NCBI GenBank assembly: GCA_041497195.1
Contig: JBGQGB010000001.1
Coordinates: 279,376-343,375 of the forward strand
Length of the DNA stretch: 64,000 nucleotides
Source of the DNA: Candidatus Doudnabacteria bacterium
Lineage (GTDB): Bacteria; Patescibacteriota; Doudnabacteria; UBA920; 2-01-FULL-46-14
Reading direction: 5' to 3'
Below, in pieces: positions 57,995 to 64,000 of this stretch (position 1 is the stretch's first letter; each line of letters opens with the position of its first letter). Position numbers and translations under genes: made by a program. Under the pieces are notes generated by a model, which was not told where the DNA came from, did not search any database, and saw only the letters and a program-made list of their open reading frames with translations.

Positions 57995-58744
57995 TCAACT
58001 TTGCACCTGTTGTTTAATCAAATTTTTCTCCAAATCGCAAAAATCCGTGATCACATCCGGAGGGCGCTGGTGCTTGACGTCACCCAGCTCGACGAACTCG
58101 TTCATAAGGCAGCCGGTTTGGATATTATGCTGCAATCCTAATTGATGGCCAAATTCGTGTAGAGAAGTGGACTCTTCATAACTAGACAAAAGATTTGAAT
58201 TTTCGTCAGTCAAATCCCGCAAGGCGTCGCCGAACAAAACAATTCCATACTCCTGATAAGTCAGCCCCAACAAACTGGGATGATCTTTGTCACGGCTCAA
58301 ATACATCAGATAAACTACGGCAGTATCCCCTGAGGTAAAAAAAGTTTGGTACTGCCTCGGGATGGCTTGAATCTGCTCATCAGTCAGAGTCCGCTCATAA
58401 GAAATATCGCGATCAGAGATAATATACGACGTCGGTTTTCCGGTGACTTCCTGGATATGTTTGGCGAGATTATCCAATGCGTCCAGACGAGTGTCCAGAG
58501 CGGTCATTAGGTCAACCTCAATCAAAATTTTCTTGTAATGCCGGCCGAGATAATCTGTCTGGCCGTCACCGTCATAATGGAGACTCAAAATCTGCCGCAG
58601 CGGCTGATATTTATCAAACCAGGCCCGCAAATGCTGGTTGAAATAATCAGTTTGCGGGCCGCGGGCTTCATTTTTGAGCCAAACAAATCCGAACGACAGA
58701 ACGATCACCGACAACAAAAAGACAATTACTAGCGTCCTTTTCAT
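57995..58744 (-). CDS. Membrane-anchored metzincin-type zinc metalloprotease
   Basis: 249 aa; N-terminal TM; [12 protein letters not shown] = HExxHxxGxxH metzincin motif; between dnaK and dnaJ, 4-nt overlap with dnaK. Confidence 0.6.
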
Positions 58745-60579
58745 TTCTTCTCCTCAAACTGGGCGTCCTCTGGCTTTTCGTCCGACTTTTTCTCCTGCTT
58801 GCCCTGATCGGCGGCCTTGCCCGTCTGGGCCTGATTCTGATACATAGCAGCTCCCACCTTTTGAATTTCCTGACTGATAGCGTCCATCTGCTTTTTGATA
58901 ACATCGACATCGCTCCCGTCTTTGGCCTTTTTTAGTTCGGCCACTTTGCCTTCCAAACCAGTCTTGGTGGCAGCGTCGACTTTGTCGCCAGCATCCTTCA
59001 GGGTCTTTTCCACCACGTGAATGAGCTGATCAGCTTGGTTTCTCGCTTCAATCAGTTCCCGGCGCTTCCGGTCTTCCACGGCATGCGCCTCGGCTTCCTT
59101 GCGCATCCGTTCGATTTCCTCTTTCGAAAGATTGGAAGAACCGGAAATGGTAATGTTTTGCACTTTACTCGTGGCTTTGTCTTTGGCCGTGACTGTCAAA
59201 ATCCCATTGGCGTCAATCTCAAAGGTCACCTCGACTTGCGGCACGCCTCTGGGCGCGGACGGAATGCCGTCGAGAATAAACCGCCCCAAAGATTTATTGT
59301 CAGTCGAAAGCGGCCGCTCACCTTGCAAAATATGAATCTCGACCGAAGTCTGGTTATCCGCGGCGGTGGAAAATACCTGCGACTTTGAAGTCGGAATTGT
59401 CGTATTGCGCTCAATCAGCGGCGTGGCCACCCCGCCCATGGTCTCTATCCCCAGGGTCAAGGGAGTCACATCCAAAAGCAAAACATCCTTGACCTCACCG
59501 CCAAGCACGCCGGCTTGCACTGCCGCCCCCTTGGCCACGGCTTCCATCGGGTCCACGCCGCGTTCCACTTTTTTGCCCAAAAAATCCTCGACGAATTTCT
59601 GGACGATCGGCATGCGTGTGGGACCGCCGACCATCAGGACTTTGTCGATGTCTGTGGGGGAAAGCTTCGCATCCGCCAAAGCTTGCTGCACCGAGCTCCG
59701 GCAACGCTCCACGATCGGCTTGACCAATTCTTCGAGCTTGGCGCGGGTAATTTTCATGGTTAAGTGTTTCGGCCCCGACGCGTCAGCGGTAATGAACGGC
59801 AGATTTATCTCCGTTTCCAGAGTGGTAGACAGCTCAATCTTGGCTTTTTCCGCCGCTTCCTTGAGCCGGTTGAAAGCGATTTTGTCCGCACGGACATCAA
59901 TGCCGGATTGTTTTTTGAATTCGGCCGCAATGTAATCCATCAAGACACTGTCCATGTCAGTGCCTCCCAGATGAGTGTCGCCCGAAGTGGAAATGACTTC
60001 AAAAACGCCCTGACCAAAATCCATGATAGTGACATCCAAAGTGCCACCGCCAAAATCAAAAACCAAAATCTTTTGTTCGCCTTGGGCTTTATCCAAGCCG
60101 TAGGCGAGAGCGGCGGCCGTCGGCTCGTTGATAATGCGGATGACCTCCAGCCCGGCAATTTCGCCGGCGTTCTTGGTGGCTTGGCGCTGGGCGTCGTCGA
60201 AATAAGCAGGCACGGTGATGACTGCTTTTTGAATCGGCTCCCCCAGATAAGCCTCGGAGTCTTTTTTGATTTTTTGCAAGATGAATGCGGAAATTTGCTC
60301 GGGCGTATATTCTTTATCAGCTAGTTTGATTTTCTCTTTGGTGCCCATCTTCCGTTTGACCGCATAGGCCGTGCCTTCGGGATTGGTCACAGCCTGCCGA
60401 CGGGCCGGCTCACCGACCAGAAGCTCTCCGTCACGCGTGAGCGCCACGTAAGACGGAAACGCTTTGCCGCCCCCGACAGTCGTACCTTCCGCGGACGGAA
60501 TGATGACTGGCTTGCCACCTTCGAGCACCGCTGCTGCGCTATTGCTGGTTCCGAGATCAATACCAATGATTTTTGCCAT
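58741..60579 (-). CDS. dnaK: Chaperone DnaK (Hsp70)
   Basis: 612 aa; [18 protein letters not shown] motifs. Confidence 0.95.
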
Positions 60580-60584
60580 ATAAG

Positions 60585-61067
60585 TTACTCCTTTCCTTTG
60601 GCCACTTTGACTTTGCTGGGCCTGATTACTTTATCATTTAATTTATAACCACTTTGGATTTCTTCAATGATGATCCCCGCTTCCTGATCCGCTTCCAGAT
60701 GCTCGACCGCTTCATGAAACCGGGGGTCGAATTTTTCTCCCACACTTTTGATTTTCTCCACTCCCATCTCCAGCAAGACTTTCTCCAGCTGCTGGACGAT
60801 CTTGACCACACCTTCGGACCACAGCTGATAGCGTTCATCTTTGGGGGAATGAAATAGAGCTTGCTCCAGGCTTTCCAGAGTTGGGAGGATCTTGACGACC
60901 GTGACTTCCTGAGCAAATTGCAAAAGCTCCTGATCCTCTTTTTCCCGGCGTTTCTTGTAATTTTCAAAGTCTGCAGCCGTGCGTTTCCAGGAATTCAAAT
61001 ACTCCTCGGCCTTGCGCTTGTATTCAGCTAATTCTGCCTCCACGGATTTGTTTTGTTCTCCGGTCAT
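60585..61067 (-). CDS. grpE: Nucleotide exchange factor GrpE
   Basis: 160 aa; coiled-coil N-term, GrpE C-terminal pattern. Confidence 0.85.
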
Positions 61068-61813
61068 ACCTTCAAATTATGCAAATGAACCAAAAAATAT
61101 ACCCCGAGCCCGCTGGATAACAATTTGGAAATATATTCCAAGAGACTGATATTTCTGGCGTATTTCATCCGTTTCGGCCCGACTATGCCGATCACCCCAT
61201 GCTGCCCGCCAGGTAAATTGACTTTGGTCACCACTAGGCTGAAATCCGAAGCCAACGGGATAGGAGCTTCCTTGCCAATAAAGGTTTCGACTTTCTGGAA
61301 ATCCTTTTTTATCAAAGTCTTGCTGTGAGTATCCAATTCTTCGAGAAACCGAGCCAACTCCTTGAGCTCATCCCGTTGCACGTCTTGTTCCATGACTTTA
61401 GCCAGGCCACTGGTAGAAACGCTCTCCGGCAAAAGGGCAAAAGCCGCGCCCTGGGCTTGGTCTGACAAAAGTTTGCTGATACTGTGCCCCAGCTCCAGGT
61501 ACTGACCTTTGAGACGAACCAATTCTTGACGCAACCGCTGCTGTTCGAGGGTGCTCAACTCCAAATGGCGCATGAGCTTGTTCACAAAATACCGATAGCC
61601 CTGGTCAGTCGGCACGCGGCCGGCCGAGGTGTGCGGCTGGGTAATAAATCCGACTTTTTCCAAAGCTTTCATTTCATTGCGTACTGTCGCTGAACTGACA
61701 TCCAGGCGGTATTTTTCCGCCAGGTCTTCTGACCCGACTGGCTCGCCTTTTTGACTGTATTCTTTGACAATGGCGGCCAAAATTTGCCCTTGTCTGCTGG
61801 TAATTTTTTCCAT
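61064..61813 (-). CDS. hrcA: Heat-inducible transcription repressor HrcA (short form)
   Basis: 249 aa; N-terminal winged-helix RQGQILAAIVKEYSQKGEPVGSEDLAEK...; shorter than typical ~340 aa. Confidence 0.8.
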   Translation of the reverse strand: MEKITSRQGQILAAIVKEYSQKGEPVGSEDLAEKYRLDVSSATVRNEMKALEKVGFITQPHTSAGRVPTDQGYRYFVNKLMRHLELSTLEQQRLRQELVRLKGQYLELGHSISKLLSDQAQGAAFALLPESVSTSGLAKVMEQDVQRDELKELARFLEELDTHSKTLIKKDFQKVETFIGKEAPIPLASDFSLVVTKVNLPGGQHGVIGIVGPKRMKYARNISLLEYISKLLSSGLGVYFLVHLHNLKV

Positions 61814-61833
61814 ATCTATCCCTAATTATACTT

Positions 61834-61860
61834 TTAGCACTCAAGTGTGTCAAGTGCTAA
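61834..61860. promoter_or_regulatory. CIRCE operator upstream of hrcA-grpE-dnaK-dnaJ
   Basis: TTAGCACTC-aagtgtgtc-AAGTGCTAA (consensus TTAGCACTC-N9-GAGTGCTAA). Confidence 0.85.
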
Positions 61861-61936
61861 AAATCCCGTTTACAAACGGCTCGGACTTTGCTACAATCGG
61901 TTGTCAGACATGTTGCGCCATAAGGAGGAACATCAT

Positions 61937-62191
61937 ATGTTCAAGTGGCTAGTTGGAGCTGGGACGTTGACTCTGGGTCTGGTGCTCACAGCATGCTGGC
62001 TCCAAATTCGTATCAACCAGCTGAACCGCAAGGTGGGACAAAGCCTCACTGGGGCTGATCCAGCACTAACTGAACGCAGCCTTTCTCTCGAGAAAAAACG
62101 CCGATTTTCTTTCTGGTTAGCTCTGGGCGTTGCGGCTATTACCGCAATTGTGTTTGTGGTGATGACTCTGCACGATCAGCATTTCTTTTGA
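61937..62191 (+). CDS. Small 2-TM membrane protein (paralog A)
   Basis: 84 aa; ATAAGGAGGAACATCAT-ATG; TM1-charged linker-TM2; followed by hairpin terminator (aggcagc...gctgcct + T7). Confidence 0.5.
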   Translation: MFKWLVGAGTLTLGLVLTACWLQIRINQLNRKVGQSLTGADPALTERSLSLEKKRRFSFWLALGVAAITAIVFVVMTLHDQHFF

Positions 62192-62281
62192 ATTCTGTTC
62201 GGACAACGGCCAATCGGGCACGAAAAGGCAGCTTCCCGCATTCAAGGAGGCTGCCTAATTTTTTTATCTAGGCTCCTAGGC

Positions 62282-62343
62282 TCTACAAAATCTTTTTCAA
62301 ATACTGACCAGTATAGGACTTTTTGACCGATGTCATTTCCTCC
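62282..62343 (-). pseudogene. Duplicated 3'-end fragment of uvrA (pseudo-C-terminus)
   Basis: ~60 nt ~75% identical to uvrA 3' end at 62746-62806; translates [19 protein letters not shown] vs uvrA ...[19 protein letters not shown]. Confidence 0.6.
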
Positions 62344-62419
62344 CATCTACATGATAATTGACTTTGCCCCGGAGTTATGATATCTTTATTCTCGAACTAA
62401 ATAAGGAGGAACACATACC

Positions 62420-62668
62420 ATGTTGAATCTATTTCAGCTTCGGTATCTGCTGGTAGATCTGGGGGCTCCATTGCTGGCCATAGCTGTCGTACTATTTATT
62501 ATTGCACAACGTGTTCACAAAGAGCTCTACAAACCGGCTCTCACTCGCGACCAACTTGGCCAGAACTTGAAGCGTTATCAATCCTACGTTCGTGCGTCGC
62601 TGCTTTTCTTCCTGGCTGGCGCATTCTGCCTAACTGTGGAGTTCGCCCTTCTTAAAGGATTGAGGTAG
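62420..62668 (+). CDS. Small 2-TM membrane protein (paralog B)
   Basis: 82 aa; AATAAGGAGGAACACATACC-ATG (13-nt SD-region identity with paralog A); TTGACT/TATGAT-like promoter upstream. Confidence 0.5.
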   Translation: MLNLFQLRYLLVDLGAPLLAIAVVLFIIAQRVHKELYKPALTRDQLGQNLKRYQSYVRASLLFFLAGAFCLTVEFALLKGLR

Positions 62669-62745
62669 ACTCCTTCAGCACCGCCTAAGATGCAAACCAC
62701 CGCGTTCCCAGAATAGGATCGCGGTGGTCATTTTTTTTCGAAATG

Positions 62746-64000
62746 TTATAAAATCTTTTTCAAGTACTGACCAGTATAAGATTGTTTCACGCGGGCGACT
62801 TCCTCGGGCGTGCCCTGAGCGAGCAGTTTGCCCCCTTTGTCCCCGCCTTCCGGCCCGAGATCAATAATCCAGTCCGCATATTTGATCACGTGCAAATTGT
62901 GCTCGATCACCACTACGGTATTGCCTTTATCAACAAGCTTGGTGAGCACGTCGAGTAATCGCTTCACGTCATCAAAATGCAAACCAGTAGTCGGCTCGTC
63001 CAGAATATAAAGCGTCTTGCCGGTTTGGGTGCGCGACAGTTCAGTGGCGAGTTTGATCCGCTGCGCCTCCCCCCCGGACAGGGTCGTGGCAGACTGGCCC
63101 AAGTGCATATAGCCCAGACCGACCAGGGACAACACCTCGAGTTTGCGAAAAATCACCGGCACGTTGCGGAAAAATATTCGCGCTTCGTCCACGGTCATCT
63201 CCAGAACATCGGCAATGGTTTTGCCTTTGTAATGGATGTCGAGGGCTTCTTTATTGTAACGCTTGCCTTTGCATTCTTCGCAGACCACATAAACATCGGG
63301 TAAAAAATGCATTTCGATTTGGATCACGCCATCCCCGGAACAGACCTCGCACCGCCCGCCTTTGACGTTGAAGGAAAACCGACCCGACTGGTAGCCGCGA
63401 ATCTTGGCTTCCTGCGTGGAGGCAAACAAATCCCGAATGTAAGTAAACACGCCCGTATAAGTGGCCGGGTTAGACCGGGGCGTCCGGCCGATAGGGCTCT
63501 GGTCGATATTGATGACTTTATCGATGTTATCCAGTCCCAAAATTTTCTTGTGCTCGCCGGGTGAATCTTTGGCATTATAAAAGTACGAGGACAGGGCTTT
63601 GGCCAAAATATCATTGAGCAAAGTCGATTTGCCCGAGCCCGACACGCCGGTTAGGCAAATAAACTTGCCCAAAGGAATTTCCACGTCCACATTCTGCAAA
63701 TTGTGCTCAGCAGCCCCAATAATGCTCAATTTGCGGCCGTTTCCCGGCCGCCGTCGCAGCGGCACAGGAATCGTCTCCAATCCTGCCAGATAACGGCCAG
63801 TCAGGGAAGTGTGGTTTTTTTTGAGATCAGCCGGCGTCCCAGCTGCCACCACCTCGCCTCCGTGTTTACCCGCCCCCGGACCAATATCCACGACCCAATC
63901 AGCCGCCAAAATGGTTTCCTCGTCATGTTCCACCACAATCACGGTATTGCCCAGATCCCGCAGACTCTTGAGAGTCTCCAAAAGTCTGGCGTTGTCGCGC
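62746..64000 (-). CDS. uvrA: Excinuclease ABC subunit A, C-terminal portion (continues beyond window end)
   Basis: ABC ATPase motifs ([34 protein letters not shown]), C4 zinc finger; ORF-track Met at 63981 is internal to a ~940-aa protein. Confidence 0.9.

Follow-up and report, generated by a model that had tools for sequence, protein, structure and literature searches.

A displaced uvrA 3' end and an orphan small membrane-protein gene between uvrA and hrcA in a Candidatus Doudnabacteria genome

Alignment of the interval between uvrA and hrcA in a 64-kb stretch of bacterial DNA (the window, assigned from the relatives of its hrcA to Candidatus Doudnabacteria, of the Patescibacteria or candidate phyla radiation, CPR) with the same interval of its nearest relative indicated that the original 3' end of uvrA has been separated from its gene. 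A copy of the last 14 codons and the stop codon (the remnant) still adjoins its old neighbour, a small gene here called mini1 (84 aa, two transmembrane (TM) segments), while uvrA itself ends further on in a second, altered copy; the segment added between the two carries another small gene, mini2 (82 aa, two TM segments). The best reading of this arrangement, with a probability of roughly 0.5, is a recent additive recombination with a diverged homologous locus, that is, a 3'-end displacement by homology-facilitated illegitimate recombination (HFIR). Displacement of a 3' end by additive recombination is a known kind of event, met here in an unusual host and an unusual gene, and is not a new kind of system. 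In what follows, a unit comprises promoter region, Shine-Dalgarno sequence (SD), mini gene, terminator and uvrA end, unit 1 holding mini1 and unit 2 mini2; L-numbers (L001, L070 etc.) denote contigs carrying the same locus or that of relatives, L070 being a Logan contig.

The displaced uvrA end and the added segment

An earlier note on this DNA, made from the letters alone, had described a second copy of the uvrA 3' end of about 60 nt, and the alignment bears it out. Positions 62284-62342 and 62747-62805 form a direct repeat of 59 nt with 78% identity and a spacing of 463; the similarity is real, the 29-nt core of the repeat, AAAATCTTTTTCAA[A/G]TACTGACCAGTATA, occurring exactly twice in the window against an expectation of 0 from shuffled sequences. 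Read on the minus strand, the upstream copy encodes 19 residues followed by a stop (CTA, 62283-62285), and the functional uvrA likewise ends in 19 residues with its stop at 62746-62748. Solid homology is limited to 45 nt (62283-62327), 38 of them identical. Past this part, the next 9 nt (62328-62336; codons VAR of uvrA) match at only two of nine positions, and TTCCTC (62337-62342) then matches at all six. Another copy or source of this 9-nt block, be it junction or filler, was not found within the window, and the illegitimate joint, which would lie somewhere in 62328-62343, may fall on either side of it. Within the core, the codons TAT ACT GGT CAG TAT produce a 14-nt palindrome, ATACTGACCAGTAT, of the form 6-2-6 (ATACTG-AC-CAGTAT; 62301-62314 and 62764-62777), which is perfect in the remnant, reduced to 5-2-5 in the functional copy and absent from relatives, where other codons are used. 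The features of the interval are as follows.

61869-61897, plus strand: promoter-like site of mini1, TTTACA-17-TACAAT with TG, from a promoter scan; the hexamers are the same in L070
61920-61932, plus strand: 13-mer containing the SD of mini1, ATAAGGAGGAACA, an exact duplicate of 62401-62413
61937-62191, plus strand: mini1, open reading frame (ORF) for an 84-aa two-TM protein, taken as the native gene of the locus; orthologue in L070, homologue in L012/L035
62226-62265, plus strand: predicted intrinsic terminator of mini1, an 11-bp stem followed by T7, from folding
62283-62327, minus strand: displaced original uvrA 3' end (last 14 codons and TAG stop), adjoining the mini1 terminator as the intact uvrA end does in L070
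62328-62343: junction zone, the 9-nt block followed by TTCCTC, from three-way alignment with L070 and codon comparison
62358-62386, plus strand: promoter-like site of mini2, TTGACT-17-TATCTT with TG, a consensus match only (9/12)
62401-62413, plus strand: 13-mer containing the SD of mini2, ATAAGGAGGAACA
62420-62668, plus strand: mini2, orphan ORF for an 82-aa two-TM protein, presumed cargo of the insertion
62696-62738, plus strand: predicted terminator of mini2, a strong hairpin followed by T8, from the inverted repeat and folding (z -3.65 for the plus strand and -5.04 for the minus)
62746-62805, minus strand: functional uvrA 3' end, the second repeat copy (stop 62746-62748); uvrA runs on to the edge of the window (62746-64000, partial)

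The nearest relative found, L070, has an hrcA 75% identical to that of the window and holds one unit only, with uvrA, an 84-aa gene on the opposite strand and hrcA in that order and an interval of 454 bp. Its 84-aa protein and mini1 share 56% identity over all 84 aa (z 44), and the terminator of L070 agrees with that of mini1 at about 35 of 39 positions as counted by eye (~90% identity), one base pair having changed on both sides. In L070 an intact uvrA ends, with TAG, nine bases past the T-run of the terminator. Collinearity between the window and L070 extends from the CIRCE operator (controlling inverted repeat of chaperone expression, 61833) to 62327, and beyond that point the window diverges from the continuing uvrA of L070; the functional uvrA end (62746 onward) continues exactly like that of L070. 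On the strength of this collinearity, 62283-62327 is identified as the original 3' end of uvrA in its original context, and the same alignment marks about 463 bp (roughly 62328-62790) as a lineage-specific addition relative to L070. This agrees with the proposal in the earlier note of an insertion that regenerated the uvrA end: relative to L070, with its one mini gene, one terminator and uninterrupted uvrA end, 62345-62745 is an addition, and it is the addition that supplies the functional end, the upstream copy being the displaced original. The SD and the 82-aa two-TM ORF placed by the note between the two copies were recovered, as was the 84-aa two-TM gene upstream with its own terminator (hairpin and T7), the SD regions, described there as near-identical, proving to share an exact 13-mer. 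As for the promoter between the copies, a promoter-like TTGACT is present, but its partner at a spacing of 17 is TATCTT, the TATGAT named in the note lying only 12 nt from TTGACT.

Over this region 11 contigs (from NCBI, including GCA_041485525.1 and another metagenome-assembled genome, from JGI and from Logan) are 100% identical, so that it is not a one-off assembly artefact; no strain variant without the insert was found among them. Three Logan contigs from two samples (L008, L010 and L011) break inside the mini1 terminator region (62211-62244) with an overlap of about 29 nt and are identical in sequence to the window; their ends could reflect a branch in the assembly graph caused by strain variation. 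The spacer between the mini1 terminator and the stop of the remnant (62268-62283) consists of an 8-nt tandem duplication, CTAGGCTC CTAGGCTC, and L070 has an unrelated spacer of 9 nt at this place. A 34-aa minus-strand gene called by JGI at 62242-62346 has no SD, crosses the remnant in another frame as well as the mini1 terminator, and is probably spurious. The altered block also creates an ATG in the remnant's own frame, opening a 17-aa ORF, with a GGGAGG SD just 2 nt upstream.

Polarity, age and origin of the two uvrA ends

The two copies differ at seven positions within the solid 45 nt, which amount to four codons changed silently, a stop changed from TAG to TAA and a K/Q codon, both states of which occur in relatives. 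At six of the seven sites the remnant has the base of the relatives (L070, L012, L037 and L040), the functional copy has it at none, and one site is ambiguous. The functional copy thus carries, within its last 15 codons, six changes absent from relatives, all silent or stop-to-stop, and six of its seven changed sites are third-codon positions. Seven random substitutions would leave the protein this intact, with one amino acid changed and the stop kept, with a probability of 3e-4. Had both copies started out identical in this genome, the remnant would be expected to have accumulated more than the seven changes of the functional copy; for it, the probability of 0-1 changes is 0.003 and 2e-6 for illustrative means of 8 and 16, and none was seen; free to vary at all 45 sites and yet unchanged, it is therefore young, and is best described from these counts as recent, undecayed and non-functional. 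The copies do not fit the fresh duplication implied by the earlier note, since all six polarisable differences fall on the functional copy and the remnant is undecayed. Over the last 40 codons of the functional uvrA, third-position identity to relatives is 0.43 versus 0.63 among the relatives, and this is the only stretch in which the present genome is further from the relatives than these are from each other.

According to the additive recombination proposed here, the corresponding locus of a diverged relative would have supplied a piece of DNA that was added to the chromosome and did not replace the resident copy. The incoming piece would have consisted of part of the promoter region, the SD, mini2, the terminator and the uvrA 3' end; one of its ends would have been joined by homologous exchange inside uvrA and the other by an illegitimate joint about 14-20 codons before the resident uvrA stop. 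As a result, uvrA would now end in incoming sequence, its resident last 15 codons would be left as the remnant beside mini1, and two non-identical small two-TM genes would stand in tandem, each complete with a promoter-like site, an SD and a terminator of its own. HFIR has been put forward to explain how 3' ends are displaced, and orphan genes arise, at rhs and type VI secretion system (T6SS) loci (PMC5361080). Some traits of that model recur at the present locus, where the insert is absent from L070, which keeps the undisturbed arrangement, the old 3' end stands beside its original neighbour and, by alignment and polarity, the new end is continuous with uvrA. Microhomology would further be expected at the illegitimate joint, where TTCCTC agrees with the uvrA register at 6/6 positions but is set apart from the solid homology by the 9-nt block. 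A donor-derived tract in the anchor gene and a recognisable donor lineage would be expected as well; the last 40 codons of uvrA are the outlier described above, with no breakpoint resolved and no donor found. No transposase, integrase or recombinase gene was found in the insert, the only sizeable ORF of which is mini2, or among its neighbours. From these patterns we infer both the foreign origin of the insert and the mechanism of recombination.

A rather unlikely alternative is the tandem duplication, within this genome, of a unit of about 465-480 bp, including the last ~15-20 codons of uvrA, after which the distal mini gene diverged beyond recognition while selection preserved the SD and the functional end of uvrA. 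The two units do share the order of their parts, with collinear offsets of 463-481 for the uvrA end, the terminator T-run, the SD 13-mer and GACTTTGC; the SD 13-mer ATAAGGAGGAACA is exact at both places, with no other site in the window within two mismatches; the codons ACT GGT are common to both uvrA ends; and a PALT motif, suggestive only, stands at the same loop position in both mini-proteins. Rapid divergence is also conceivable in a fast-evolving family, the mini1 homologue of L012/L035, which is likewise convergent with uvrA, being only 36% identical over 56 aa (z 9) while the hrcA of L012 is 73% identical. The coding DNA of mini1 and mini2 retains a faint trace of similarity, the z value of which ranges from 1.0 to 3.1 with gap costs and null model: it reaches 3.0-3.1 with lenient gap costs and codon-shuffled nulls, but vanishes (1.0-1.7) with stricter gap costs. 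At the protein level the two genes, called paralogous in the earlier note, gave no BLASTP alignment, their Smith-Waterman z is 1.6-1.9, and a hidden Markov model (HMM) of the three mini1-family proteins scored mini2 at 1.5 bits, a value attained by 248 of 2000 shuffles, so that their paralogy is not supported by sequence comparison; what links them is the SD 13-mer, the architecture and the faint trace in the coding DNA. Outside the SD and the uvrA end, the DNA of unit 1 and unit 2 is similar only at random level in the leader, terminator and 5' region, and the two terminator stems show no recognisable similarity. A homology of the promoter regions (TCCCxTxTACA...GACTTTGC) proved not significant once the SD was left out (z 0.46) and was dropped, and a frameshifted homology of mini2 to the mini1 family, with a best z of 2.96 (7/500 shuffles) uncorrected for nine comparisons, was unconvincing.

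The ages of the parts speak against a duplication in place. An unselected remnant with 0 changes over 45 nt, against 6-7 in the functional copy, is young, and a unit 2 unalignable with unit 1 almost everywhere is old, so a single event cannot have been both; the remnant would need to be constrained for some reason. Tandem duplication keeps some weight because of the shared ACT GGT, the identical SD 13-mers and the odd 9-nt block. The two ages are most simply reconciled if unit 2 diverged outside this genome, as another lineage's counterpart of the locus, and was added recently.

The polarity might also be the reverse, the mini2 unit and the present uvrA end being native and the mini1 unit, with its fragment of a uvrA tail, having come from an L070-like relative by recombination anchored at hrcA/CIRCE, perhaps including part of the hrcA side. 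The additive geometry works equally well from that side, the well-conserved hrcA/CIRCE region could act as the anchor, and the remnant is nearer to uvrA ends of relatives (39/42 to that of L037, by eye) than to that of its own genome (36/42). This version is nevertheless improbable: genes of the mini1 type hold this position in L070 and L012, and the UvrA motif KLLAQ, common to L070 and the present genome only, groups the body of uvrA with L070, which makes a native mini1 more parsimonious. Neither hrcA (at most 75%) nor mini1 (56%) is unusually close to any sampled relative.

A second displaced uvrA tail was encountered in L075 and its like (L036 and L076-L078), whose hrcA is 91% identical to that of L014. 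In L075 (4258-7262; also L036:2217-2255) the complete uvrA ends in ...ASYTGQYLRKILQK and stop, with a different tail (LRKILQK, then stop), and is followed by about 3 kb of cargo consisting of an RHH-PIN toxin-antitoxin pair, a 243-aa protein of unknown function, which is also present after uvrA in L040, and small membrane proteins. Past this cargo lies an isolated old uvrA tail of 10 residues fused to a sortase-like gene, as is the intact uvrA end of L014, with 86% identity over the 78 nt that span the stop and the sortase start. The uvrA genes of L075 and L014 are about 0.85 identical along their length, and over the last 30 codons this drops to 0.70, as between unrelated lineages. Judged from these alignments, the second displaced tail is an independent event in another Doudnabacteria lineage, which suggests that the uvrA-hrcA interval is a hotspot of such additions. 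Its junction lies at codon -11/-12, against -14 to -20 in the window, and no recombinase gene accompanies it; both points support recurrent homology-anchored additive recombination and weaken a site-specific model.

Such a model, in formal terms the nearest to the target duplication of the earlier note, would invoke a Campbell-type integration: a small mobile element whose attachment site resembles the uvrA 3' end would regenerate the gene on integration, the 463 bp being the whole element or what decay has left of it. In keeping with it are the direct repeats, whose 29-nt core differs at one position, the 14-nt palindrome inside this core, and the fact that the uvrA end has been struck twice independently, as is the distribution of differences, those specific to the remnant lying 5' of codon -14 and those specific to the functional copy 3' of it, which is the pattern of a single crossover between diverged 60-nt sites. 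Its chances are slight all the same: integrase, recombinase and transposase genes are lacking in the insert and its neighbours, here as in the 3-kb insert of L075; 463 bp is too small for an autonomous element and has neither terminal inverted repeats nor a match in phage, plasmid or IMG/VR collections; and the different junction codon of L075 speaks against a fixed core site. Target-site duplications of transposons and insertion sequences are short (about 2-15 bp) and initially identical. The earlier note had spoken of a target duplication, which in the transposon sense is not supported: the repeat is 59 nt at 78% identity (solid part 38/45), inverted repeats are limited to the hairpin of the terminator and a pair of short palindromes in other places, and genes for a transposase or an integrase are lacking.

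Several observations weigh against additive recombination from a diverged donor. A donor lineage with mini2 was found in none of the cluster, representative and IMG/VR searches; the foreign origin is read from divergence patterns in only 45-60 nt; the GC content of mini2 (0.49) equals that of the genome; and the 9-nt block at 62328-62336 followed by a perfect TTCCTC is a pattern that this mechanism does not account for. A mosaic breakpoint in uvrA could not be placed, since all relatives lie at much the same distance (~76-78% at the nucleotide level). Both uvrA ends carry ACT GGT, a combination not seen in the relatives examined, and the two SD 13-mers do not differ, while those of L070 and L012 each deviate from them at 2 of 13 positions; together these hint at a donor close to the present lineage, and such a donor would fit badly with an unrecognisable mini2 and an unrelated terminator. 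Relatives with an hrcA between 75% and 100% identical, sought in order to date the event, were absent from the genome, metagenome and protein collections.

The small membrane proteins and their neighbourhood

By their sequences mini1 and mini2 are small membrane proteins, each with two hydrophobic peaks, and both are presumed to be expressed. Codon usage is best in the annotated frame, though below the average of long genes, and either ORF has its own terminator, the same SD 13-mer and a uvrA end with which it is convergent. The mini2 terminator may also end transcription of uvrA from the opposite strand. Homologues of mini2 beyond its own species were found neither in a word-indexed search of 5.8 billion clusters nor in an exhaustive HMMER search of 1.84 billion representatives, and the gene had no match in IMG/VR or, by BLAST, in phage and plasmid collections; in the databases covered, mini2 is a complete, species-specific orphan. 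A protein-database search with mini1 returned only itself, and its orthologues were located solely through the genomic context of hrcA relatives, as members of a small, fast-evolving family in three lineages (the present genome, L070 and L012/L035). In Pfam, NCBIfam and PHROGs the mini-proteins had nothing above threshold, the sub-threshold matches being to unrelated TM families only, and PADLOC gave no match, which leaves the toxin-like, holin-like or regulatory role considered in the earlier note without support from these collections. No RNA family of Rfam was detected in 61700-62900.

On its other side mini1 is divergent from the hrcA-grpE-dnaK operon, the relevant features of which are listed below.

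58741-60579, minus strand: dnaK, ORF
60585-61067, minus strand: grpE, ORF
61064-61813, minus strand: hrcA, 249-aa ORF, first gene of the hrcA-grpE-dnaK operon and anchor of the locus; Pfam HrcA/WHD_HrcA on an identical protein
61825-61859, minus strand: hrcA promoter of the sigma-70 type, TTGACA-17-TATAAT (12/12), overlapping the CIRCE operator, from the promoter scan
61833-61859: CIRCE, TTAGCACTC-N9-AAGTGCTAA, read directly in the sequence

The consensus of the CIRCE inverted repeat, which lies upstream of hrcA-grpE-dnaK, is TTAGCACTC-N9-GAGTGCTAA. The CIRCE found at 61833-61859 and the hrcA promoter are conserved in L070 and L012, and the -35 element of mini1 lies 10 nt from CIRCE, so that mini1 could possibly share control by HrcA in the heat-shock response.

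Throughout the clade uvrA and hrcA are adjacent, with an interval that changes from lineage to lineage in almost all those examined: it is about 320 bp long and has no gene in L018 and L074, reaches about 5.7 kb in L075, and can contain a sortase-like gene, a gene for 466-470 aa, unknown genes or toxin-antitoxin pairs. In the sortase-like gene (Pfam Sortase; L012:5218-5859, L014:3834-4436, L015:4478-5056, L075:7274-7861) a motif, LLTLQTSYPVGT, is conserved. The usual active-site motif of sortases is TLxTC; if LLTLQTSYPVGT is its counterpart, the catalytic Cys would be replaced by Ser in all lineages seen. The full-length UvrA (on L001/L002) has 946 aa. Genes of the neighbourhood with Pfam matches are dnaJ, dnaK, grpE, hrcA, uvrA, uvrC, secG and an SBP gene. 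Between dnaK and dnaJ, at 57995-58744, lies the gene for a 249-aa protein with a zinc-protease motif of 11 residues, the position of which is conserved in several relatives and which has weak Peptidase_M54/M10 matches in L071 and L073. In L071 (1734-2933), genes for a GIY-YIG protein, a nucleotidyltransferase-like protein and a 95-aa unknown interrupt hrcA-grpE-dnaK between grpE and dnaK.

Significance and comparison with known systems

CPR bacteria cannot be grown alone, and the ways in which they gain genes are mostly inferred. If the preferred reading, additive recombination with diverged DNA, is correct, the locus is a clean and datable footprint of that process in a CPR bacterium, and it would show that a tiny genome can gain an orphan membrane-protein gene, together with its promoter-like site, SD and terminator, in the absence of mobile-element machinery, mini2 having been acquired without damage to the essential repair gene uvrA. 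Beyond that it is an ordinary small rearrangement, from which no new mechanism or function is demonstrated, and its significance would rise somewhat should the uvrA tail prove a general capture site in CPR genomes. A bolder and quite doubtful extension is that the uvrA 3' end is a recurrent, integrase-free capture site in Doudnabacteria at which additive recombination stacks lineage-specific cargo, here hypervariable small membrane proteins and in L075 a toxin-antitoxin pair and unknown genes; mini1 and mini2 would then be alternative "alleles" of a fast-evolving membrane determinant, both kept, like orphan immunity genes, because two variants are advantageous. Such a determinant may serve, for example, in the interaction of episymbionts with the host cell or with phages.

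Three known kinds of arrangement resemble the locus in part. With a tandem segmental duplication it has in common the head-to-tail units, the same order of parts and a truncated gene fragment at a novel joint; it differs in that the unselected fragment is undecayed while the rest of unit 2 is unalignable, and one date cannot fit both. Genomic islands and prophages at the 3' ends of tRNA, tmRNA and protein-coding genes likewise keep their target intact through the new end that they bring along and leave the displaced partial copy as a direct repeat at the far border. Unlike them, the present insert measures only 463 bp, without an integrase or other mobility gene and without a long identical repeat core, and the position of the junction differs between the two uvrA cases seen.

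The closest system is the HFIR-type 3'-end displacement of rhs, cdi and T6SS effector-immunity arrays (Kirchberger et al. 2017, PMC5361080; Jackson et al. 2009 cited there). The present case is unlike these arrays in its anchor, which is a housekeeping repair gene with a conserved tail and not a variable toxin domain, in its small genes, which are convergent with the anchor and not co-directional immunity genes, in the mere 45-60 nt displaced, in its CPR host and in the absence of evidence for toxin and immunity functions. It is like them in its geometry: a new 3' end together with an adjacent small gene has been added with the conserved gene body as anchor, the old 3' end has been moved to the distal side along with the small gene beside it and persists as an orphan, an integrase plays no part, and the same site has been struck repeatedly in related genomes.

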